Part shown: positions 2,281 through 64,000 of the stretch, one piece after another
How the letters are laid out: every line of letters starts with the position of its first letter
How positions within the stretch are numbered: position 1 is the first letter of the stretch
Position numbers and translations under genes: made by a program
The notes under the pieces: model-generated
Told to the model about the DNA's origin: nothing
Database searches by the model: none
What the model saw: the letters and a program-made list of their open reading frames with translations, nothing else
NCBI RefSeq assembly: GCF_003334815.1
Contig: NZ_QOWO01000013.1
DNA from: Escherichia coli
Lineage (GTDB): Bacteria > Pseudomonadota > Gammaproteobacteria > Enterobacterales > Enterobacteriaceae
DNA: 64,000 nucleotides
Strand: one strand, 5' to 3'

Positions 2281-4362
2281 TTACGCATTCGAGTAACGTT
2301 CCGTCTCCGGCATCCAGCGTTCTATCAGGGCTTTTGCCTGTTGTGGGTAACGTTCGTGAATATGGCGTGCCAGGCGCTGAACTTCCGGGATCATCGCCTG
2401 ATCGCGCAGTAAATCCGCCACTTTAAATTCAGCATTACCCGTCTGACGCGTGCCTAACAATTCGCCAGGGCCGCGAATCTCCAGATCTTTTTGCGCAATC
2501 ACAAAACCGTCGTTACTGTCGCGCAGCACTTGCAGGCGAATTTGCGCCGTTTTAGAAAGCGGCGTTTTGTAGAGCAGCACGCAGTGAGAAGCCACCGCGC
2601 CACGACCTACGCGCCCGCGCAGCTGGTGTAACTGCGCCAGACCCAGACGCTCCGGGTTTTCGATAATCATCAGACTGGCGTTAGGCACATCAACGCCGAC
2701 TTCAATAACGGTTGTGGCAACCAGCAGGTGTAGCTCACCTTGTTTAAACGACGCCATCACCGCCTGTTTCTCGGCAGGTTTCATCCGCCCGTGTACCAGG
2801 CCAACGTTCAACTCTGGTAGCGCCAGTTTCAACTCTTCCCAGGTAGCTTCCGCCGCCTGCGCTTCCAGCAATTCCGACTCTTCAATCAACGTACAAACCC
2901 AGTATGCCTGACGACCTTCAGTTATGCAGGCGTGGTGCACGCGGTCAATGATGTCGGTACGGCGGGTATCAGGAATAGCGACCGTAGTCACTGGCGTGCG
3001 GCCTGGCGGCAGCTCATCTATCACCGAGGTATCGAGATCGGCATACGCAGTCATTGCCAGCGTGCGGGGGATCGGCGTGGCGGTCATGATCAACTGATGC
3101 GGATGGAAGCCCTGCTGCTGGCCTTTCTCCCACAATGCCAGACGCTGATGCACGCCAAAACGATGCTGTTCGTCGATAATCACCAGCGCCAGGCCGTTAA
3201 ACTGCACCTGTTCCTGGAAGATGGCGTGTGTACCGACAATCATCTGCACCTGACCGCTGGCGATGGCTTCCTGCTGTGCCAGCCGTGCTTTACCTTTCTG
3301 CTTACCGGCGAGCCAGCCCACTTCGATACCGAGCGGTGCAAACCAGTTGCGGAAGTTATTGGCGTGCTGCTCGGCGAGTAATTCGGTTGGTGCCATCAAT
3401 GCTACCTGTTTGCCGTGGGCAATCGCACGCAACGCGGCGAGGGCGGCGACCAGCGTTTTACCGGAACCTACATCGCCCTGCACCAGACGCATCATCGGCA
3501 CATCCAGCGCCATATCGCGCTCGATCTCCGCCACTACGCGTGCCTGTGCGCCCGTTGGCTTGAACGGTAAGGCGGCGAGGAGTTTATTTTTCAGCGTGTC
3601 ATTGGCGCTCAGCGGCTGGGCATGAAAACGCTGTGCTCCGGCACGTAAGGCTAACATGCTGAGGTTGTGCGCCAGCAGTTCTTCCAGAATCAGACGACGT
3701 TGCGCCGGATGCTGCCCGGTTTCCAGATCGCTAAGCTGTAGCGTCGGTGGCGGGCGGTGCAAAGTGCGCAACGCTTCCGGTAGCGTCATCATTCCTTGTG
3801 ACAGTTCCGGCGGCAGGAGTTCTTCAATGGCGCAGGTGTCGAGCAGATCCAGCGCCTGGTCGGTTAATTTACGCAGCGTGGCCTGCTTTACGCCTTCCGT
3901 TGTTGGATAAACCGGCGTGAGCGTTTCCTGTAATTCTGGCGTGCTGAGATCGCCCTGCACGCGGTATTCCGGGTGGATCATCTCCGCACCATATTTACCG
4001 CGCTTTGCTTCGCCATAAGCCAGTACACGGCGGCCCGCCGCCAGGCTATTTTTCATTGCCGCGCTGAAATTGAAAAAGCGCATGGTGAGGATGCCGGAAC
4101 CGTCGCTGATCTGGCAGGTCATCATCCGCCGACCGCCGAAGGAGATATTGCAGTTCAGCACTTCGCCTTCCACCGTGGCATAAACGCCCGGCAGTAGTTC
4201 TCCGATGGGGTAGAGATGGGTGCGATCTTCGTAGCGCAGGGGAAGGTGTAAGAGTAGATCCTGCACGGTATGCAGGTTGATTTTCGCCAGTTTGTTACTA
4301 AGTGCTGCGCCAACGCCCGTTAGGGAACTGAGTGGGACAGCATCTAACAGGCGACCTTTCAT
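2281..4362 (-). CDS. recG: ATP-dependent DNA helicase RecG
   Basis: ORF track 2281..4395; conserved N-terminus MKGRLLDAVPL begins at internal ATG 4362 (693 aa); Walker A GSGKT and DEQHRFG helicase motifs present. Confidence 0.93.
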   Translation of the reverse strand: MKGRLLDAVPLSSLTGVGAALSNKLAKINLHTVQDLLLHLPLRYEDRTHLYPIGELLPGVYATVEGEVLNCNISFGGRRMMTCQISDGSGILTMRFFNFSAAMKNSLAAGRRVLAYGEAKRGKYGAEMIHPEYRVQGDLSTPELQETLTPVYPTTEGVKQATLRKLTDQALDLLDTCAIEELLPPELSQGMMTLPEALRTLHRPPPTLQLSDLETGQHPAQRRLILEELLAHNLSMLALRAGAQRFHAQPLSANDTLKNKLLAALPFKPTGAQARVVAEIERDMALDVPMMRLVQGDVGSGKTLVAALAALRAIAHGKQVALMAPTELLAEQHANNFRNWFAPLGIEVGWLAGKQKGKARLAQQEAIASGQVQMIVGTHAIFQEQVQFNGLALVIIDEQHRFGVHQRLALWEKGQQQGFHPHQLIMTATPIPRTLAMTAYADLDTSVIDELPPGRTPVTTVAIPDTRRTDIIDRVHHACITEGRQAYWVCTLIEESELLEAQAAEATWEELKLALPELNVGLVHGRMKPAEKQAVMASFKQGELHLLVATTVIEVGVDVPNASLMIIENPERLGLAQLHQLRGRVGRGAVASHCVLLYKTPLSKTAQIRLQVLRDSNDGFVIAQKDLEIRGPGELLGTRQTGNAEFKVADLLRDQAMIPEVQRLARHIHERYPQQAKALIERWMPETERYSNA

Positions 4363-54001: not shown

Positions 54002-55149
54002 TATTGCATTGCTTTATAAGCGGTTACCGCCTCGGATACAACCTCGCTGTTGGCATCAAGACCGGAAATCTGTGCCAGCGCCGCCTGCGGACCTTTGTCA
54101 GCGATCAGTGCTGCCAGTTCCTGAGCCTGCGGATCATCTTCACTGCGGAAGTGCATTGCAGCGGCAATACCTTCAATCAGGTTTTTATGTGGCAGACCAT
54201 ATTCCAGCGTACCGAGCAGTGGCTTGATCAGACGGTCGCCAGCACTCAGTTTACGCAGTGGCTGACGGCCTACGCGCTCTACATCATCTTTCAGATACGG
54301 GTTCTCAAAACGGCCGAGAATTTTCTGGATGTACGCCGCATGCTTGTCAGCGTCAAAGCCGTAGCGCTTGATCAATACTGCACCACTTTCTTCCATCGCA
54401 CCTTTTACCACCGCGCGGATTTTCTCGTCGAGAATCGCGTCACGAATGGTCTGATGACCGGCCAGTTTTCCGAGGTACGCGGTTATAGCATGACCCGTGT
54501 TCAGGGTGAAGAGTTTACGTTCGACAAATGCCATCAGGTTGTCGGTTAACTCCATGCCTGGGATGTTCGGCAGTGCGCCTTTGAACTGCGTTTTATCGAC
54601 AATCCATTCGCTGAAGGTTTCTACCGTCACTTCCAGCGGATCGTTAGTTGCCGAAGCCGAAGGCGGTACGATGCGGTCAACGGCGGAATCGACAAAGCCA
54701 ACGTGTTCTTCTACCCACGCTTTGGCGTCTTCCGGCAGGGCGTTCATCACATGGCCTTTCAGCTGCGTGGTACCGCGTACCATGTTTTCACAGGCGATGA
54801 TGTTCAGCGGGGATTCATTACCTTGTTCTTTACGTTTCACCAGCCCTTTGGCGATTGCCGGAGCAATACGTTCCAGCACAACCGGGCCAACGGCGGTAGT
54901 GACTAAATCAACCTGAGCAATCAGATCAACGACATCATCACCAATGCTGCTGACAGCATTGACGCCGGAAACGGTATCTACCTGCTCGGTTTCACCAACC
55001 ACATGTACCTGATAGCTATGACGGGCATTCAGGGCATCAAGTACCACCTGATTGACATCGGCAAACGTCAGTTGGATACCCGCGTCTGCCAGCAGTTTAC
55101 CGATAAAGCCACGACCGATATTACCTGCGCCAAAATGTAATGCTTTCAT
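54001..55149 (-). CDS. mtlD: mannitol-1-phosphate 5-dehydrogenase
   Basis: ORF track 54001..55467; conserved Rossmann start [17 protein letters not shown] at ATG 55149 (382 aa); the upstream extension in the track runs through REP repeats. Confidence 0.94.
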
Positions 55150-55180
55150 AGTATTAACCTTCATCAATGTTTTTACCCGA

Positions 55181-55375
55181 GAGGGCTGGGGTGAGGCTTT
55201 TCCCTCACCCAAACCCTCTCCGTGAGGAGAGGGGCAGCGCCGGATGCGGCGTAAGCGCCTTATCCGGCCTACAAGAACGTGCAAATTCAACAAATTGTGA
55301 TGCATCCTGTAGGCCTGATAAGCGTAGCGCATCAGGCAATTAACCCCACCTTCTCCATGTGGAGAGGGTGGGATT
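55181..55375. repeat. BIME-like cluster: CCCTC/GAGGG hairpins flanking two inverted REP elements
   Basis: hairpin about 55201-55234, REP 55241-55273, inverted REP 55305-55337, hairpin about 55346-55372; between mtlA stop and mtlD start. Confidence 0.7.
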
Positions 55376-55378
55376 GGA

Positions 55379-57292
55379 TTACTTACGACCTGCCAGCAGT
55401 TCCAGCACTTCATCCACGCTGGTGGTGTGTGCCAGACGCTCGATGACGGACTCATCATCCAGTGCATTGGTCAGGCTGGTGATAACCTGAATGTGCTCGT
55501 TGTTACGGGCAGCAATACCAATCACCAGACGGGCAATGTCATCTTCTTCTTCACCGAAGCGCACGCCTTCCGGGTACTGGCAGAACACGACGCCCGTTTT
55601 CAGTACGCGATCTTTCGCTTCAACCGTACCGTGTGGCACCGCGATAGACTCACCCAGATAAGTCGGGGTCAGTTTTTCACGATCCAGCATCGCCTGAACG
55701 TATTCCGGCTCAACGTAACCGCCTTTCACCAGCTGCTCGCCAGCAAAACGAATCGCTTCTTCTTTGGTTGCCGCTTTGCGACCGAGGAAGATGTTCTCCG
55801 CGCCTAGCTTGAACAGGTTAGCACTGGAATCGTCAAAGCTGTCTTTCAGGCTGTCTTTTACTTTCTCTTCGTTTGCCGTGTGGCGTTGGGCAGCAACCAG
55901 ACGTTCGGTCAGGCTGGTGTACAGGCCGCTGTCGAGGAAGTTGGTCAGCGAAATATGCTGTGCCTGCGGAACCTGGCGCATAGCGCGTTCGGTCAGGTCA
56001 CGGTGAGTGATGACGAGGTCCACATCTGGCGGCAGGTTGTTGATCGCGCTGTTAGTAACAGAAATCTGCGACAGACCTGCATCCTGAATTTTCTTACGCA
56101 GAACGCCTGCGCCCATCGCACTGGAACCCATACCGGCGTCACAGGCAACGATGATTTTACGTACGTGGCTCAGGTCGTTAGTCACATCGCCAGCAGACAG
56201 CGGAGATGCGCCTTTAGACTCAGCTTTCATGTCCTGCATACGACGAGTTGCTGCTTCAATATCATCTTCTTCTTTCACTTTGCTGGTTTTCAGCAAAATA
56301 GCAGAGACAACGAAGGAGACAGCCATCGCCGCACACACACCCGCGATGTTAGCGAAGTAAGCACCTTTTGGTGTCATCGCCAGTACAGCAAGGATAGAAC
56401 CCGGAGATGCCGGAGAAACCAGACCACCGCCCAGGATAGTCAGCGTGAACACGCCAGTCATACCGCCGAGGATGACTGCGAGGATCAGACGCGGATTCAT
56501 CAGCACATACGGGAAGTAGATTTCGTGGATACCCCCCAGGAAGTGGATGATTGCCGCACCGCCCGCAGACTGTTTAGCGCTACCACGACCAAAGAACATG
56601 TACGCCAGCAGCACGCCCATACCTGGACCTGGGTTAGCTTCAATCAGGAAGAAGATTGATTTACCCAGTTCATGGGACTGCTGAATACCCAGCGGCGAGA
56701 AGATACCGTGGTTAATGGCGTTGTTGAGGAACAGGATTTTCGCCGGTTCAACAAAGATAGACGCCAGCGGCAGCATGTCATGGACAACCATGAAGTTAAC
56801 GCCCGCAGCCAGCATTTTGGACAGGGCTTCAACAATCGGGCCAATGCCGAGGAATGCCAGAATAGCGAGGATCATCCCGATGATGCCTGCGGAGAAGTTA
56901 TTCACCAGCATCTCAAAACCGGATTTGATCTTACCGTCTACCCAGCGGTCGAAGTGCTTAATGCACCAGCCGCCCAGCGGACCTGCAATCATAGAACCGA
57001 GGAACATCGGCATGTCTGCGCCGACGATAACGCCCATGGTGGTGATGGCACCGACTACGCCGCCACGTTCGCCGCCTACCAGCTTACCACCGGTATAACC
57101 GATCAGCAGCGGCAGGAGATAAGTGATCATCGGCCCGACCAGCTTCGCCAGCGTCTCGTTCGGTAACCACCCTGTTGGAATAAATAACGCGGTGATGATA
57201 CCCCACGCGATAAACGCGCCGATATTTGGCATCACCATGTTGCTGAGGAAACGACCAAAGCTTTGCACTTTGATCTTAATATCGGATGACAT
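55379..57292 (-). CDS. mtlA: PTS mannitol-specific EIICBA
   Basis: ORF track 637 aa [27 protein letters not shown]... Confidence 0.95.
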
Positions 57293-57435
57293 AAAAACAC
57301 CCCTTCTTATGTTTGCTGTCGCGCAGGCTGGAAGCCCGAGGTTTTTTGTTAATGTGGCGGCAGAGGTAGCCGGACCTTGTAGATACTGCGAAATCTGGCA
57401 CTGAATCGGTTAACTGTCCAGTCGACGGCCTTTTG

Positions 57436-57612
57436 TGTGATATCAATCACATAAATATAGGGGGTAGAGAGGTAATTGACGTGACGTTCATCACAAAACG
57501 CTTGTGTAAAAAAGCAACAAGGCGGCGATTTTCGCTAAAAATGGCATTTAAATGTGAGTAGTGTCACATTTTTGTTTTGATGGTTTGTTGAATCTTTGTG
57601 ATCTGAATCACA
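57436..57612. promoter_or_regulatory. mtl operon control region with four CRP-type sites
   Basis: TGTGA-N6-TCACA at 57436-57451, 57553-57568 and 57597-57612 (perfect half-sites) and cGTGA-N6-TCACA at 57480-57495; 144-320 bp upstream of mtlA start. Confidence 0.65.
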
Positions 57613-57828
57613 AGATATTTTCTTACGGCGTTCACCTGATGTGATCTACAGCATGTTATGCCTTCGTCATACAATCGTTATGTAACTAAGCAACTCATCA
57701 CCTCTAAAAATTATTCTTTGGTGTTATGGCGAGAATCGCGAACCCGGATTATTGTCAAAATATCAGCCTGACTCCCTTCTGGCTGCCAGCCCAAAAACAA
57801 CACTGATAAACGTGAATCCGAGGCAGAT

Positions 57829-58191
57829 ATGTTTCTAAACTATTTCGCGTTGGGAGTGCTGATCTTCGTCTTTCTGGTGATTTTTTATGGAATCATCGCG
57901 ATACATGACATCCCTTATCTGATTGCCAAAAAGCGCAACCATCCCCATGCCGACGCTATTCATACGGCGGGCTGGGTGAGCCTGTTTACTCTGCATGTTA
58001 TCTGGCCGTTTCTGTGGATCTGGGCGACGCTCTATCAACCGGAGCGTGGCTGGGGTATGCAGTCACATGTTGCGTCGCAGGAGAAAGCGACTGACCCGGA
58101 AATCGCCGCACTTTCTGACCGAATTTCCCGGCTGGAGCATCAACTCGCCGCCGAGAAAAAGACTGACTATTCCACGTTCCCGGAGATCTAA
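57829..58191 (+). CDS. yibI: small inner-membrane protein YibI
   Basis: ORF track 120 aa; two hydrophobic segments then a charged C-terminal tail. Confidence 0.82.
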
Positions 58192-58193
58192 TT

Positions 58194-59330
58194 ATGGATC
58201 TATTGATTGTTTTAACTTACGTGGCGCTGGCGTGGGCGGTCTTTAAAATCTTCCGCATTCCGGTAAATCAGTGGACGCTGGCGACGGCGGCGCTGGGAGG
58301 CGTGTTTCTGGTGAGTGGTTTGATTTTGTTGATGAACTACAACCACCCTTACACTTTTACCGCGCAAAAGGCAGTGATAGCGATCCCTATCACGCCACAG
58401 GTGACGGGAATTGTTACTGAAGTCACTGACAAGAATAATCAGCTTATTCAAAAGGGCGAGGTGCTTTTTAAGCTCGACCCGGTTCGTTACCAGGCGCGAG
58501 TTGACAGACTTCAGGCTGACCTGATGACGGCGACGCATAATATAAAGACGCTGCGTGCGCAGCTCACTGAAGCGCAGGCCAACACCACCCAGGTTTCAGC
58601 GGAGCGCGACCGTCTGTTTAAAAATTATCAACGTTACTTGAAAGGCAGCCAGGCGGCGGTGAATCCGTTCTCGGAACGTGACATCGACGATGCGCGGCAA
58701 AATTTCCTCGCGCAGGATGCGCTGGTGAAAGGCTCGGTGGCGGAGCAGGCGCAGATCCAGAGCCAGCTCGACAGTATGGTTAACGGCGAGCAATCGCAGA
58801 TTGTGAGCTTAAGAGCGCAACTTACTGAAGCAAAATATAACCTTGAGCAGACTGTCATTCGCGCGCCGAGCAATGGCTACGTTACTCAGGTACTGATCCG
58901 CCCAGGTACATACGCAGCTGCCTTGCCGCTGCGTCCGGTGATGGTCTTCATCCCCGAGCAAAAACGGCAAATTGTCGCCCAATTTCGGCAAAACTCGCTG
59001 TTACGTCTGAAACCCGGCGATGATGCGGAAGTGGTGTTTAACGCGCTACCTGGGCAGGTGTTTCACGGCAAACTGACTAGTATTTTACCTGTCGTGCCAG
59101 GCGGTTCTTATCAGGCGCAGGGGGTATTGCAATCATTAACGGTCGTGCCCGGCACGGACGGTGTGCTGGGAACCATTGAACTGGACCCTAACGATGATAT
59201 CGATGCCTTACCCGACGGCATCTACGCCCAGGTGGCGGTTTACTCCGACCATTTCAGCCATGTTTCGGTGATGCGGAAAGTGCTGCTAAGAATGACCAGC
59301 TGGATGCATTATCTTTATTTGGATCATTGA
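58194..59330 (+). CDS. yibH: HlyD-family membrane fusion protein YibH
   Basis: ORF track 378 aa; N-terminal TM, long coiled coil, beta-rich C-terminus; 2 nt after yibI. Confidence 0.85.
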
Positions 59331-59892
59331 GGGGGAGGGGGGAGATTATGGAACTTTGCTCCTTGTAAGGACTAATTATTTTTGCATATTACTTCATTAG
59401 CTGCGATGATTTTTCTTTAATATTCATTATGTTAATAAGTTCTGGATGAGTGTGCTCTCATTGGATTTTTTATCCGTCTTGTTCTGCCGCAGGATGAGAC
59501 TATACATCGTCGAGATCGCAATGATGATATGAGTTGTTCCTCCTGCGACGGCTCTAATCAAAAAAGAGCAGGAGTGCTTTTCCATCTATTGCGATGATGG
59601 CTTTATTATCTGAAGGATGACAGTCACATTTAAAAAATATTTAATCTATAGATCACAATGTAGGGTCATGGAATATATGTATACAACTATTTTCTTCTTC
59701 ACTTTTAATTATCGTATTCATTATAAAACTAAGTTAAAAAAACTCCTGGAGAGTGAGTTATTAATATATTTTTAAATAAAATTAAGTTATCATTCATCGA
59801 TGCACTTTATAGAATCATCAATGGCCATAATAGTACTATTAACTCTCAATTTTATATTTTTATCATCACTACAAATATTAACTGAATTTATA

Positions 59893-60228
59893 TCAATGAT
59901 TTTTTTTATTCTTATCTTTTATTTTATTTACTGTTTCAATGCAATCAGCGGCAAGTTGGAGTGGATTTAGATTTTTCAGATATGGTCTTATGATCTTTCC
60001 CTTACTTAATAAATAGCATGTATAGGATTCGGAAAGTCCAGCATCTATTTTGTACCTCATTATATTAGATAAGGATGTGAGAAATTCCTTGTTATCATTC
60101 GCAGCCATATATGCCAGTCCGAGTTCAGCCTCTGCGGCCTTACAGGCAAAATAGCTTAGTGAACACGCTTTTCGTCCCTCTTTAGTACTGGCTGATATTA
60201 GTGCCCATAATATTGCTTTGTCTGCCAA
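59893..60228 (-). CDS. hypothetical 111-aa ORF at the distal end of the rhs accessory array (possible orphan immunity gene)
   Basis: ORF track only; track start is a TTG and the first ATG is internal; AT-rich; no recognisable motif. Confidence 0.35.
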   Translation of the reverse strand: MADKAILWALISASTKEGRKACSLSYFACKAAEAELGLAYMAANDNKEFLTSLSNIMRYKIDAGLSESYTCYLLSKGKIIRPYLKNLNPLQLAADCIETVNKIKDKNKKNH

Positions 60229-60316
60229 ATCTAACTCTCTCTGAAATTGTCTTGCAGTAACTGCACTCGCAGAAATAGAGAAAAAAATACAATTGTTAAT
60301 AACCTTGCCATATTTT

Positions 60317-60610
60317 TTAGTCCGTAACTGTTAATGTGCTATCTGGCTCTGAAAATATTAACTCATTTAATTTTTGCATGTCATTAGATAAACCAGTTAT
60401 ACAACCCTCGGAACAGAATCGAGGTCCTAAAGACGGACCAAAAGCGTTTAAACAACTATGTATTGAAAATCCATTGCGATTATAAGTTCCTGTATTAACT
60501 GACGGTACTAATCGTATGCCGTCAGGTTTTCTATTGCTTGCTCCCGGGTCATTAACATTCCAACTCCATAGGCCTTGAGGTATTGGCCATCTATTTATAA
60601 ATGTGTACAA
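60317..60610 (-). pseudogene. probable remnant of an orphan Rhs C-terminal toxin tip
   Basis: ORF track 97 aa starting at TTG; lies directly downstream of the degenerate rhs core-end fragment but in a different frame. Confidence 0.35.
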
Positions 60611-60744
60611 CGGGGATTATTTTTACATTGCATATTATTACCAGAAGCGACTGGAATACTAAGCACATCATAAAAATTATCATCACATGGTATATCTGAA
60701 ACACACGAAAGCATACCTAAAGTTATGCTGTATAAACAGGTGGC

Positions 60745-60925
60745 TAATCCCAAGGGGATCGATTCCAGAAATCGGGTTCAACGGATACTGATAAAAATTC
60801 CACCTACCTTCCAGCCCAATCGGAGCCTGAGTGTTATACCGCCCCTGCTGCGGTTAATGTTACCGATAATAGTTATAGTACAGCCCTGATTCATCATCAT
60901 ACTACTGCTGCGGCAGTCTGATGAA
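60745..60925 (-). pseudogene. degenerate Rhs core C-terminal fragment with in-frame stops
   Basis: Reverse translation gives [54 protein letters not shown], a decayed copy of the rhs core end ([20 protein letters not shown]...[24 protein letters not shown]). Confidence 0.6.
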
Positions 60926-60934
60926 CTATTGCTT

Positions 60935-61396
60935 TTACGGATTCTCCTTATTCTTCCTTCTATCCATTCGCTTTAGCTTTTTGAGCTCTTGAAGTTTGCT
61001 CTTTGCATCAATATTACCGTTATTTACAGCGAATTCCATCCAATAAATAGCTCTATTCAAATTATAATATTCTGATAATGTTGGATTTGTATCTGATAAA
61101 AAGACCCCATAATTAAACTGCGCTGTAACATTCCCCTGAGATGCTGATCTTTCCAAGAATCGCAATTGTTTGTAAATGTTATTTTTAGTAAAGCAGTAAT
61201 ATTGATATAGTCGAAATGATGCCTCTGAATCACCATGTTGTGATTTATACTTCAGTTTCATCAACTTTTCTTCACTTAAATCATAGGTCATTGCTGTAGA
61301 CCCCATCATACTTTCGTTTTGTTTTATTTTCACATCAGCACCATGCAATTGACAAATAAAAGAGAAATAAAAAAATAGTAACAAGCATGCTTTCAT
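60935..61396 (-). CDS. yibG: Sel1-repeat protein YibG with N-terminal signal-peptide-like segment (putative immunity protein for the yibJ toxin tip)
   Basis: ORF track 153 aa; 12 nt downstream of yibJ stop. Confidence 0.82.
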   Translation of the reverse strand: MKACLLLFFYFSFICQLHGADVKIKQNESMMGSTAMTYDLSEEKLMKLKYKSQHGDSEASFRLYQYYCFTKNNIYKQLRFLERSASQGNVTAQFNYGVFLSDTNPTLSEYYNLNRAIYWMEFAVNNGNIDAKSKLQELKKLKRMDRRKNKENP

Positions 61397-61407
61397 ACAT
61401 CTACAAC

Positions 61408-62352
61408 CTATCTTATATCACTGGGTTTTTCTGGCGTACCTTGCATATTAGAAATGGGGTGCCCAGATGGCCCATATGTTATCCAATTACCAAGGTCTTT
61501 TGTTGTTATAGCCATTAGATCCTTATTTGAATTAAGGTTCGTTGGTGCTGTTAGCACTGTATCCATTTTTAACTTACCATTAGTTCCTCGCCCCCACCAC
61601 GTCCATAGCGTGTCAGGTCCTATTACATTTGTATGTAACTCTTTAGCTAATTGGCTAGCAAATGAATTTTGTCCTTTACCTGTATTACAAGAAAATAACC
61701 AAACTGTCATCCCATCTTTATAATTCCCATCAAATTTAATTAGATATGCTAGATCTTTAGCTGTCATGATACTGCGCGTTGCGGATTCAATAGATGTGGG
61801 GGTACCATGCCCCCCGATTGTGAAAACGCCTGGGATATTAATCTCATCAGCTACAGAATGGATAAGATCACTTTCGGGGTATAAATTTATATCAACCAAA
61901 CCTTGCGGATCTACATTTATGACCGGATTCAACGGATACTGATAAAAATTCCATCCCCCCTTCAGTCCAATCGGATCCTGAGTGATATACCGCCCCAGCA
62001 GCGGGTCATAATAGCGGTGGCGGTTGTAATACAGGCCGGACTCCTCATCATACTGCTGACCCGGCAGGCGAATGAGCTGCTGCAGATGATGCGGGTTCTC
62101 ATCACTCAGCAGGTTGCCCCATTCATCATATTCTGCGCACCACGCTGTTGCCCCTTCCGTGCTGATGAGCGCCAGCGGCAGGCCGCGATGGTCGCAGTGG
62201 TACAGGTGGATTTTTCGCGCCGGCGTGTACACCGGGTCCATCTGGTTTTGCATCTGCTCCACCGTCAGGCCGCACGATGCCAGCCAGCGGCGGCTTTCCT
62301 CACTCACCCGGTCAGCCAGGATTTCACTTTCCAGCCGGTCGAGCATCTGCAC
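61408..62352 (-). CDS. yibJ: orphan Rhs C-terminal module YibJ: rhs core 3' fragment fused to an alternative C-terminal tip
   Basis: ORF track 314 aa (GTG 62352 or ATG 62346); first ~150 aa nearly identical to the rhsA core end, diverging after DPQGL. Confidence 0.8.
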
Positions 62353-62388
62353 CGTGCCGGCGGGAATCCCCCACTGTGCATAGGCAAC
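61921..62388 (-). repeat. direct repeat of the rhsA core 3' end (second copy at 63678-64000 and beyond)
   Basis: long near-identical stretches, e.g. TTTTTCGCGCCGGCGTGTACACCGGGTCCATCTGGTT at 62211-62247 and 63964-64000. Confidence 0.85.
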
Positions 62389-62393
62389 TCACG

Positions 62394-63236
62394 CTATGAA
62401 CGCTTCAGCTTATCAATAGCGGAAGTTATAATTTCATTGTCATCAAACTTGTACAACATAGTATCTAAAACAGGAAGTAGCGTTTTATCACCTAATTCAC
62501 CCGCAGCTTCAATGATATCATCATAAACAGTATTTTTTTTTAACTCATCGCATAAAACAGATAAAACCCTTTTATCTTTTCTGTAGGAAAGTCCGATTAT
62601 TGCTTCAATACGGACTTCCTCATTTTTATCCTGAAGCATCTCCACAAAACAATCCCTAATATCACTATTATCATATTTATTGATATTTATTGCAAATGCG
62701 GCCCAGTTTCTGACATCTCCATTTGGATCTTTTAACAGATTAATCAATAGTGGAATTGTTGCTTTATCATTGATAACAGAAATAGCAAATGCTGTAGCAC
62801 GTCTGACATTAGTCGATTTATCAAAAGCAGTAATTTGAGATTGTTCTACTATTTTAGGTGAATAAATTGGGTTTTTCTTGCATCGCTGAGCCGTTGACTC
62901 GATTGCCGTAGCTCGAACGCAAGCGCTCTTATCATTCAATGCCATATTGTTCAAAATATTAAAAACATTATCTTCGCATTTTTTGCAAATTTTTATTTGC
63001 CCGAGTATAAATGCTCCGATATCTCTACGGATATAATTTTTATCAGAGCAGAACTCAATTGCCAATCTAACAGCGTCTTGCCCACCTCTTAACTGTAATA
63101 CTCTGGCAGATGAAATCCTTTTCAAGGAATTGTGATCATCAAGTAAGCGAAATAATTCATCATCATTTAGTTTCTTACATTGATTATATAAACCATACTC
63201 TTTACTTGCCTTTCTTTTCTGGTATGTATTTGACAT
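62394..63236 (-). CDS. yibA: HEAT-repeat protein YibA (RhsA-associated immunity protein)
   Basis: ORF track 62394..63251 (GTG); ATG 63236 preceded by GGAGG gives 280 aa; 20 nt downstream of rhsA stop. Confidence 0.82.
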   Translation of the reverse strand: MSNTYQKRKASKEYGLYNQCKKLNDDELFRLLDDHNSLKRISSARVLQLRGGQDAVRLAIEFCSDKNYIRRDIGAFILGQIKICKKCEDNVFNILNNMALNDKSACVRATAIESTAQRCKKNPIYSPKIVEQSQITAFDKSTNVRRATAFAISVINDKATIPLLINLLKDPNGDVRNWAAFAININKYDNSDIRDCFVEMLQDKNEEVRIEAIIGLSYRKDKRVLSVLCDELKKNTVYDDIIEAAGELGDKTLLPVLDTMLYKFDDNEIITSAIDKLKRS

Positions 63237-63256
63237 TGCAGGAACCTCCACAAGGG

Positions 63257-64000
63257 CTATCTTTTTTTATCGTTTGACTGTCTGGAGTGACGACAATTCC
63301 AGGCTTTCTGTGTGCTTTTTGCATCTTTAGCACTAATATCACCACAATCAATTAGTTCCTGAAGTACGTCACATCTGTCGGGTTTTTTCCCATCACTCCA
63401 GAATCTGTCATTTATTATGTCATTGACACGATCAGTTATCCCTGTGTCTGCAACATTTCCACGAGAAGCTATCATTGTTATATCTAATGCTAGTCCCGGA
63501 TTATTCAATATTAGAGAGTCAAATATTCTTTGTGATGCTGTATCGTTCCACCATTTTGTCAATGCTTTTGCAGCATTATCATCTGCTTGCTGCTGTGCAG
63601 GGCTTTTGGGCCATGGAATTGGCAAGGGGAATGGTCTAGGAAAAACTTCTAACCCCAGAGGATCTGTATTCGTAACTGGATTCAACGGATACTGATAAAA
63701 ATTCCATCCCCCCTTCAGCCCAATCGGATCCTGAGTGATATACCGCCCCTGCAGCGGGTCATAATAGCGGTGGCGGTTGTAATACAGGCCGGACTCCTCA
63801 TCATACTGCTGCCCCGGCAGGCGGATAAGCTGCTGCAGCTGATGCGGGTTCTCTTCATTCAGCAGGTTGCCCCATTCATCGTATTCTGCGCACCATTCTG
63901 TTGTCCCTTCCTTGCTGATAAGGGCCAGCGGCAGGCCGCGATGGTCGCAGTGGTACAGGTGGATTTTTCGCGCCGGCGTGTACACCGGGTCCATCTGGTT
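63257..64000 (-). CDS. rhsA: RhsA, 3' end only (core C-terminus, DPLGL junction and C-terminal tip); gene continues beyond window end
   Basis: Open reverse-strand frame from the window end to TAG at 63257-63259; ...[44 protein letters not shown]... Confidence 0.88.

Follow-up and report, generated by a model that had tools for sequence, protein, structure and literature searches.

Direct repeats of the rhsA core end at the Escherichia coli rhsA locus, and comparative evidence for the exchange of toxin tips

The rhsA Locus: Main Gene and Orphan Modules

The window, a 64,000-nucleotide stretch of E. coli DNA, ends in the rhsA locus, where a polymorphic-toxin gene is followed by an array of orphan modules. 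The locus was reportedly first described by Feulner in 1990 and by Zhao and Hill in 1995, and partial core repeats downstream of rhsA are said to have been noticed already by Hill's group. The array is encoded on the minus strand of the window; its features, in the order of transcription, are the following:

63660..64000, minus strand: repeat copy 1, the rhsA core 3′ end, with rhsA nt 3391-3731 visible (RHS_core positions 1147-1261 of 1261 in NCBIfam; TIGR03696; Pfam RHS)
63257..63659, minus strand: rhsA C-terminal toxin tip, 130 aa (Pfam Ntox34, E = 2.9e-43)
62394..63236, minus strand: yibA, a HEAT-repeat protein, reported cognate immunity gene of the rhsA tip (NCBIfam PRK09687, E = 2.9e-140; annotated yibA in the genomes L002 and L016)
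61907..62376, minus strand: repeat copy 2, the orphan core fragment at the head of yibJ (RHS_core positions 1111-1261 and Rhs_assc_core, NCBIfam)
61408..61906, minus strand: toxin tip of the yibJ orphan, with 162 aa downstream of the 10-residue motif, intact in the window
60935..61396, minus strand: yibG, Sel1/TPR-like by annotation and by a weak TPR/Sel1 Pfam match, presumed immunity gene of the yibJ tip
60749..60953, minus strand: repeat copy 3, a decayed core fragment that begins directly after the yibG stop codon (in-frame stop codons; "internal stop; incomplete" in PGAP)
60317..60748, minus strand: third toxin tip, decayed, Tlde1-like (L,D-transpeptidase-type; weak Pfam match to Tlde1_dom, E = 0.008; stop codons after the DPLG motif)
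59790..60311, minus strand: frameshifted Imm57-family immunity pseudogene of the third module (PGAP annotation in L002, L016, and others), placed through the offset window = L002 + 53299

The window edge cuts copy 1, whose repeat runs ~130 bp beyond it, and the rhsA gene extends ~3.4 kb further. In the K-12-like genomes L002 and L016, which have the same arrangement and were used to extend the repeat past the window end, the full-length gene, which codes for the Rhs shell, is 4134 bp long and is annotated RhsA. It has the makeup of a main gene, with a large core of YD/RHS repeats whose end is the hyperconserved Rhs-associated core domain (RHS_core, TIGR03696, and Pfam RHS), and the motif PxxxxDPxGL at 63650-63679 divides this core from the variable Ntox34 tip. 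The immunity gene yibA lies 20 bp downstream, and the RhsA C-terminus is neutralised by yibA according to Vlazny and Hill (1995), as that work is cited in PMC3150448. At the N-terminus of K-12 rhsA (L016; outside the window), DUF6531 is strongly matched (E = 2.9e-18) and PAAR weakly and in part (E = 0.13, residues 2-20). No secretion genes were found among the ORFs and annotated neighbours in window 55000-64000 and its flanks out to selB and yibL. With the PAAR match weak and partial and no secretion genes in that region, delivery of either toxin by this strain is putative, and type VI delivery of RhsA is not claimed.

The orphan reading frame opens directly after the yibA stop codon and stays open for 314 codons from a GTG. 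It has the form that defines an orphan, namely a core 3′ end that lacks the N-terminal delivery region and is joined to an unrelated tip; the rhsA and yibJ tips share ~44% DNA identity, which is background. The yibJ tip matched no Pfam domain, and whereas its K-12 counterpart has a premature stop codon, the tip in the window is intact. In all arrangements examined, and at two chromosomal loci, the yibJ tip is followed by an intact yibG, its presumed immunity gene. The third module has decayed in both of its coding parts, and a ~90% identical version of its tip is annotated in strain 1190 as an intact tlde1-domain protein.

Repeats of the Core 3′ End

The three copies of the rhsA core 3′ end are direct repeats on the same strand, with start-to-start spacings of 1151 and 1753 bp. 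The preliminary description had presented them as three nested copies in one orientation; the common orientation stands, but the copies are dispersed direct repeats in tandem order and are not nested. Its coordinates for the rhsA core end (63678-64000) and its duplicate (61921-62388) fall within ~20 bp of the measured 63660-64000 and 61907-62376, and the degenerate copy it had placed at 60745-60925 was recovered at 60749-60932 in one comparison and at 60774-60953 in another.

Within the window, 63660-64000 pairs with 61907-62247 over 341 bp at a constant offset of 1753 bp, with 21 mismatches (93.8% identity) and exact runs of 77 (cut by the window end), 61, 41, 30, and 22 bp. Copy 2 appears longer than copy 1 because the window stops inside rhsA. 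The full repeat spans 471 bp (rhsA nt 3261-3731 against window 61907-62376) and has 94.1% identity, with 27 mismatches and 1 gap (720 bits, E = 0). Its exact runs measure 92, 90, 61, 41, 30, and 22 bp, in keeping with the earlier remark on exact runs of tens of bp; exact blocks lie at 63678-63718 and 63751-63811, and two of ~90 bp cover 63924-64000 and reach past the window end. Continuous identity between them starts at 63678 and 61925, at the PxxxxDPxGL motif (63650-63679 and 61897-61926). Chance or an assembly artefact as the source of the repeats is ruled out by the E value of 0 and by the thousands of independent complete genomes that carry them: in ~2480 complete E. coli genomes, a single place matches at least 80% of window 59300-64000, so that these genomes keep the orphan form, in a count that includes a variant with an RhsB tip.

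Copy 3 differs from this pair. Its identity is 72-77% (about 76%) over ~183 bp (E = 1e-34), and its longest exact run is 26 bp. The preliminary description had offered all three copies as substrate for recombination, while naming excessive divergence as a reason to give the idea up. That proposal holds for copies 1 and 2, since copy 2 is a near-identical direct repeat of sufficient length for homologous recombination. It fails for copy 3, which is a dead relic, unusable as a substrate: the sequence is too divergent, and both the fragment and the tip contain stop codons.

Swapped Arrangements in Other E. coli Genomes

Because copies 1 and 2 are direct repeats in the same frame, 1753 bp are lost when they cross over, and translation of the product shows an intact gene in which the core is joined to the yibJ tip. 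This agrees with the deletion forecast in the preliminary description, in which the rhsA tip and yibA are lost and the full core is fused to the yibJ tip. The strain comparison that it had also called for turned up such genes. In EA13, a full-length Rhs gene of 4230 bp with the yibJ tip, followed by yibG, stands between yibF and yibH, and the rhsA tip and yibA are missing. The yibJ tip is carried by full-length Rhs genes in the genomes L001 and L003-L008, and it is joined to a full-length or long core in 927 of 5426 complete E. coli genomes. The count of 927 comes from a query balanced between core and tip; a query whose tip-specific part was limited to ~210 nt did not distinguish fused genomes from orphan ones at 80% coverage. 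The sizes of the other arrangement classes are rough estimates from evenly spaced ranks.

The junctions themselves can be compared with prediction. When a product was assembled solely from window sequence and its crossover was placed in the 41-bp exact block, it matched L005 (strain Z1323CEC0018) at 840 of 840 positions. The same product has a match of at least 99% in 277 of the 5426 genomes, and the best 40 of these 277 matches are all 100% identical, ETEC H10407 and ML35 among them. A second junction type occurs in L003 and L006, where 940 of 940 positions are identical to the common orphan allele and true core sequence lies upstream, which is the expected outcome of a crossover in the 5′-most exact block. 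The difference is plain in the alleles: L005 carries those of the main gene through rhsA nt 3709, and L003 and L006 carry those of the orphan from nt 3388. Main-orphan fusion junctions are thus present across genomes, and two predicted junctions are matched exactly. Intact genes identical to the predicted products of two crossover intervals exist at the same chromosomal site in other E. coli. Among the sampled loci, the flanks of L005 are the nearest to the K-12-type locus: the upstream flank has 7 mismatches over 1255 bp, the downstream flank 3 over 2577 bp. At 31 diagnostic sites, seven fused genes display five different mosaic patterns, which gene conversion from other rhs cores could also explain.

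Proposed Origin of the Array and Probable Exchange Between Copies

The best explanation of these data, to which we assign a probability of about 0.85, is that the array derives from displacement and that homologous recombination between copies 1 and 2 loads the yibJ tip. The repeats would be footprints of C-terminal displacement, in which new tip and immunity cassettes entered through homologous recombination in the core and the old tip was pushed downstream. The two downstream modules would then be earlier modules that became dissociated, each headed by a piece of the core 3′ end. A RecA-type crossover between copies 1 and 2 would cost the locus the 1753 bp holding the rhsA tip and yibA, and would place the yibJ tip on the full-length core. 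The same homology would permit exchange in the forward or the reverse direction.

The fused genes probably arose by homologous recombination between the copies. For any one haplotype, the comparative data fit a deletion as well as its reverse, the insertion of the rhsA tip and yibA, and a fused gene may be ancestral or the product of a deletion. The analogy of Salmonella LT2 suggests that RecA, and a duplication preceding the exchange, may be involved. Because a simple deletion takes the yibA immunity gene with it, selection among siblings that use RhsA should act against it, and for the same reason the published model includes an earlier duplication (PMC3967940; PMC3150448). The swap would change the toxin delivered, given a working type VI secretion system. 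The support for switching comes from comparison across genomes, and ongoing switching in the source strain is not claimed. A divergence of 6% invites rejection of recombination by mismatch repair, and the exchange rate is therefore probably very low.

It could instead be argued that the repeats are a historical scar, left when the rhsA tip and yibA were inserted into an ancestral yibJ-tipped gene, so that the fused genomes are ancestral and the copies never recombine. In favour of a single insertion event, the orphan 5′ boundary is identical in six of six orphan copies sampled, two of them from RhsB-tip loci; in addition, the orphan arrangement is stable in the ~2480 genomes, the third module has decayed in place, and Jackson's model accounts for arrays by insertion (PMC2935791). 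However, one insertion cannot have both fused haplotypes, that of L005 and that of L003 and L006, as its ancestor. Given one 5′ boundary common to the orphan arrangement, at least one of the two junction types must be a recombinant, and on this comparison of alleles exchange inside the repeat has taken place at rhsA. Three further mosaic patterns also speak against a scar, and we hold that account to be improbable. A programmed switch, whether site-specific or in the manner of high-frequency phase variation by an invertase or shufflon, is scarcely credible. Its sole resemblance to the array is that repeats in direct orientation flank a module. No recombinase gene is present in or beside the array, there is no inverted repeat apart from a weak AT-rich 22-mer, and the junctions fall in differing intervals of the 471-bp homology and not at one site. 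With no recombinase and variable junctions, a site-specific switch was rejected.

Displacement followed by exchange is compatible with, and does not exclude, the view that the orphan is kept for a present function. yibG could provide standing immunity against neighbours with the yibJ toxin, or tip and immunity gene could form a toxin-antitoxin pair, with the tip expressed from an internal promoter and start codon, the core fragment in either case being a passenger or a source of expression signals. Salmonella Rhs tips, those of main genes as well as orphans, have internal promoters from which they are transcribed, and they function as type II TA modules; the same promoter is reported upstream of E. 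coli Rhs tips (PMC7043789). The 314-codon open frame of the orphan and the intactness of yibG in every arrangement fit such a role, and with 927 genomes deploying the yibJ tip on a full-length gene, immunity to this tip would be useful. Against it, the locus persists in K-12 despite the premature stop in the yibJ tip, and the fused haplotypes are left unexplained. Promoter-like sites in 60700-64000 number 7 against 9.5 expected, and none lies just upstream of the orphan frame; a promoter and terminator scan of this interval found no excess over shuffled sequence, a result that speaks neither for nor against internal expression. Upkeep for a present function is possible, if on balance unlikely.

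Comparison With Known Systems and Significance

The tip-swap mechanism is already published (Jackson 2009; Poole 2011; Koskiniemi 2014), and the idea is not new. In Salmonella LT2, a 522-bp repeat shared by the main and orphan rhs genes at 95% identity undergoes recombination, and Southern blot and qPCR revealed the junction (Koskiniemi 2014, PMC3967940). [quoted passage not shown] The repeats are also alike in length and identity (522 bp and 95% in LT2, 471 bp and 94% at rhsA), and recombination, in LT2 and probably at rhsA, puts the orphan tip on the main gene. The toxin tips are unrelated, and rhsA has a second, decayed orphan that LT2 lacks. Whereas the LT2 locus adjoins a T6SS island (SPI-6), the rhsA site is bounded by yibF and yibH and has no secretion genes in its vicinity, and whereas the LT2 junction was seen experimentally in evolved cultures, the evidence at rhsA is a comparison of 5426 genomes.

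The array also conforms to the C-terminal displacement model of rhs evolution (Jackson 2009, PMC2935791), in which dissociated tips form arrays and every tip is preceded by a piece of core similar to that of the gene upstream, with tips common to strains and loci and homologous recombination in the core as the engine. [quoted passage not shown] In contrast, the rhsA locus, which by the subfamily names is putatively of clade I type (rhsABCF), clearly has two dissociated tips. Reloading of orphans by recombination was proposed as well for cdiA-CT/cdiI modules (Poole 2011, PMC3150448). CDI orphans are silent tip and immunity cassettes downstream of a main gene that keep a short conserved pre-toxin stretch, and their reloading has the drawback shared by rhsA, the loss of the resident immunity gene. 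The systems differ in that CdiA uses two-partner secretion, the boundary motif is VENN rather than PxxxxDPxGL, and the stretch of homology that is kept is in most cases far shorter.

The Rhs tip determines which neighbours a bacterium is able to poison, and its immunity genes determine which poisons it withstands; a built-in route for tip exchange therefore shapes strain-level competition in the gut. A further parallel is the movement of pilS sequence into pilE in Neisseria, where, as proposed for rhsA, promoterless partial copies act as a reservoir and are moved by homologous recombination into one expression site. Pilin variation differs in that it occurs frequently, by a non-reciprocal gene conversion that starts from a dedicated structure and leaves the silent copy in place, whereas exchange at rhsA is expected to be rare, to be a reciprocal deletion or to be borne by a duplication, and would consume the intervening module. 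To the published mechanism, the locus makes a modest addition: products predicted from window sequence are common in E. coli (277 or 927 of 5426 genomes, by the definition used), two junction types point to real exchange inside the repeat at rhsA, and copy 3 is a dead relic. As a worked example the locus is useful, but it raises no new question.

Cassette Traffic Between rhs Loci

Cassettes also travel between loci. An RhsB tip with yhhH is found at the rhsA site, the yibJ tip block is present at the rpmE/priA rhs locus as well, and genomes with any match to the locus have a median of five matching places. It might be supposed that rhsA is a recurrently used natural toxin switch, with many independent main-orphan exchanges within lineages and others with rhsB and with the rhs locus linked to rpmE. 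Exchanges would fall preferentially in the blocks of identity at either end of the 471-bp repeat, and transient duplications that keep yibA might turn the exchange into reversible bet-hedging rather than a one-off event; we regard this wider picture as doubtful.

The fused gene of EA13 was considered as an exact deletion product of an RhsB-tip parent (L013), and this was rejected, the best product still showing 26 mismatches in 3000 nt. EA13 and this parent type have only the core-end allele pattern in common, and no parent was identified. The yhhH-yibA junction was likewise discarded as a counter of the RhsB-tip arrangement, as it is present in 2969 genomes and does not mark the rhsA site. 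For this junction, four intermediate full-length matches lie at record positions ~258-295 kb, in genomes with two matching places.

The rhsA Locus and Its Modules

The E. coli rhsA locus occupies the final 9 kb of the window on the minus strand, in the order mtlD, mtlA, yibI, yibH and the Rhs array, with the window edge falling inside rhsA. K-12 MG1655 differs from the window at 5 positions in 6.8 kb, and strain ETEC4090 matches window 59300-64000 at 100% identity, except for an IS element that ETEC4090 carries. The array shows the standard layout for such loci, with a main rhs gene and, downstream of it, orphan rhs-CT/rhsI modules. The rhsA end and yibJ align to the final 115-151 positions of NCBIfam RHS_core and also match the Rhs-associated core domain, and each core end carries a PxxxxDPxGL motif:

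63650-63679, minus strand, PxxxxDPxGL motif of the rhsA core end
61897-61926, minus strand, PxxxxDPxGL motif of the yibJ core end

Past the motif, the rhsA tip comprises 130 aa with an Ntox34 domain (Pfam E = 2.9e-43) and is followed by the HEAT-repeat gene yibA, which neutralizes the RhsA C-terminus according to work cited in PMC3150448. The yibJ tip (162 aa) is unrelated to the rhsA tip, returned no domain in a Pfam search, and is followed by yibG, a Sel1/TPR-like gene. The yibJ frame is intact over 314 codons in the window, where position 61653, within the tip, is a C in a CAG (Gln) codon; K-12 MG1655 has a T on the coding strand at this position, creating a TAG stop inside the toxin tip. 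K-12 thus has a dead spare tip, whereas the tip is intact in the window strain and in all sampled fused genes, in which it sits on a full-length core.

The third module (59790-60750) is decayed, with stop codons in both the core fragment and the tip and a frameshifted Imm57 gene. Its tip weakly matches Tlde1 (L,D-transpeptidase-type) and is about 90% identical to an intact annotated tlde1-domain ORF in strain 1190 (L015 7032-7960). A detail that stands out is the presence of two dissociated tips at an rhsABCF-type locus, whereas such tips are generally missing from E. coli clade I loci (Jackson et al., PMC2935791).

Direct Repeats of the Core 3′ End

The three repeats of the rhsA core 3′ end reported in the preliminary description are confirmed, all in direct orientation and within about 20 bp of the coordinates it assigned, although "nested" is a misnomer, since the copies stand one after another. 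Copy 1, in the main gene (63660-64000), aligns without gaps to copy 2, in the yibJ orphan (61907-62247), at an offset of 1753 bp, with 93.8% identity across the 341 bp that lie inside the window and exact runs of 77 (truncated at the window edge), 61, 41, 30, and 22 bp. Two K-12-like loci with the same arrangement (L002 and L016) give the full repeat as 471 bp (rhsA nt 3261-3731), at 94.1% identity (720 bits), with 27 mismatches, one gap at the ragged 5′ edge, and longest exact runs of 92 and 90 bp. The corresponding rhs-main/rhs-orphan repeat of Salmonella LT2 is 522 bp with 95% identity (PMC3967940). Copy 3 (about 60750-60950), in the third module, is 72-77% identical over about 183 bp, with a single longest exact run of 26 bp. 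It fails as a recombination substrate, because it is too divergent and because a fusion there would terminate about 20 codons after the motif.

Fused Genes at the rhsA Site

Crossover between copies had been proposed to delete the rhsA tip and yibA and to load the yibJ tip onto the full core. Between copies 1 and 2, such a crossover would remove 1753 bp and keep the frame, and the conceptual product contains no stop codons. Comparison with other strains finds this fused layout at the same site; in EA13, for example, the order is yibF, an intact 4230-bp Rhs gene with the yibJ tip at its end, yibG, the third fragment, an Imm57 pseudogene, and yibH. The fused form, queried as the yibJ tip joined without interruption to core extending 400 bp beyond that of the orphan (coverage at least 80%), occurs in 927 of 5426 complete genomes. 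In about 2480 genomes, including the RhsB-tip variant, a single place covers at least 80% of window 59300-64000, so that the orphan layout is kept.

Junction products were assembled using window sequence only. With the crossover in a 41-bp exact block (63678-63718 vs 61925-61965), the 840-bp product has 0 mismatches to strain Z1323CEC0018 (L005) and matches 277 genomes at 99% or more, the best 40 listed being all 100% identical, ETEC H10407 and ML35 among them. With the crossover in the 5′-most block, the product has 2 mismatches to two other fused loci, L003 and L006. The last 940 nt of these two are identical to the orphan allele of five other sampled K-type and RhsB-tip loci, that is, every one sampled but the K-12-like L002. 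Overall, these comparisons support the tip-swap interpretation for copies 1 and 2. The 31 sites separating these copies form five patterns among seven fused genes, and gene conversion from other rhs cores could contribute to such mosaics, since genomes matching the locus have a median of five matching places.

The orphan 5′ boundary is identical in every strain sampled, which points to a single founding event in which the rhsA tip and yibA were inserted as a cassette, in accord with the displacement model (Jackson et al., PMC2935791). This model is symmetrical: from an L005-like resident, L003-like genes are later deletion products, and from an L003-like resident, L005-like genes are. Therefore, at least one common fused haplotype needs exchange inside the 471-bp repeat either way. 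Among all sampled loci, L005 comes closest to the K-12-type locus in its flanks (7 of 1255 bp mismatched upstream and 3 of 2577 bp downstream), which fits a recent relationship and leaves the direction unset.

Mechanism and Role of the Orphan Module

In the best-supported account, the repeats would be footprints left by tip displacement and would also serve as homologous recombination substrates that reload the main gene with the orphan tip. Exchange may depend on RecA, and its rate should be low, because the 6% divergence triggers rejection of recombination by mismatch repair. In Salmonella LT2, Southern blotting and qPCR of evolved cultures revealed the fusion junction, and the authors argued that the main immunity gene is preserved by prior duplication (PMC3967940); Poole et al. 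(PMC3150448) had earlier proposed the same reloading idea, with the same drawback. The orphan could also be retained for the immunity that yibG would confer, or because it is expressed internally as a toxin-antitoxin pair, the latter demonstrated in Salmonella (PMC7043789), and these roles are compatible with displacement and reloading. A scan of 60700-64000 for promoter-like sites gave 7, against 9.5 expected, with none immediately upstream of the orphan frame, and thus speaks neither for nor against internal expression.

A swap by reloading may alter the toxin actually delivered. The RhsA N-terminus (L016 3863-4762, outside the window) matches DUF6531 strongly and PAAR weakly and partially (E = 0.13, residues 2-20), and the sequence by itself shows no evident tie to type VI secretion. 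Secretion genes were not seen in window 55000-64000 or in annotated flanks out to selB and yibL.

Traffic Between Strains and Loci

The rhsA locus behaves as published for rhs arrays. At the rhsA site of some strains, an RhsB tip and yhhH precede yibA and the yibJ orphan. This arrangement is found in L013 (7594-8924), L014 (4593-5923), and other similarly annotated window-matching loci; in the former two, all that survives of the rhsA tip is its final 30 or so bases, upstream of yibA, which is here an orphan immunity gene. The yhhH-yibA junction occurs in 2969 of 5426 genomes, several of those listed carrying it at a chromosomal position unlike the rhsA site. Strain 1190 has other immunity genes, yibA, and then a 401-bp core fragment joined straight to the Tlde1 tip, with the yibJ/yibG module absent. 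Near rpmE/priA, a full-length Rhs gene bears a block made up of the yibJ tip, a yibG-like gene, and the third core fragment (L007 640-7618; L008 859-7837), beyond which lie an ISAs1 (H-repeat) pseudogene, ybfB, and another Rhs fragment. The arrangement near rpmE/priA indicates that whole tip blocks move from one rhs locus to another.

Several strains carry IS1 or ISEc69 within the Rhs array (hits H1, H11, H100, H124, and H131), and in one the Imm57 pseudogene is split by two IS1 copies; insertion sequences seem to hit the AT-rich tip region frequently. Outside the array, the mtlA-mtlD spacer (about 55170-55450) contains several overlapping ORFs on both strands, including a long ORF upstream of mtlD that encodes repeated "SPHGEG..." stretches, and resembles a cluster of REP/BIME-type palindromic elements.
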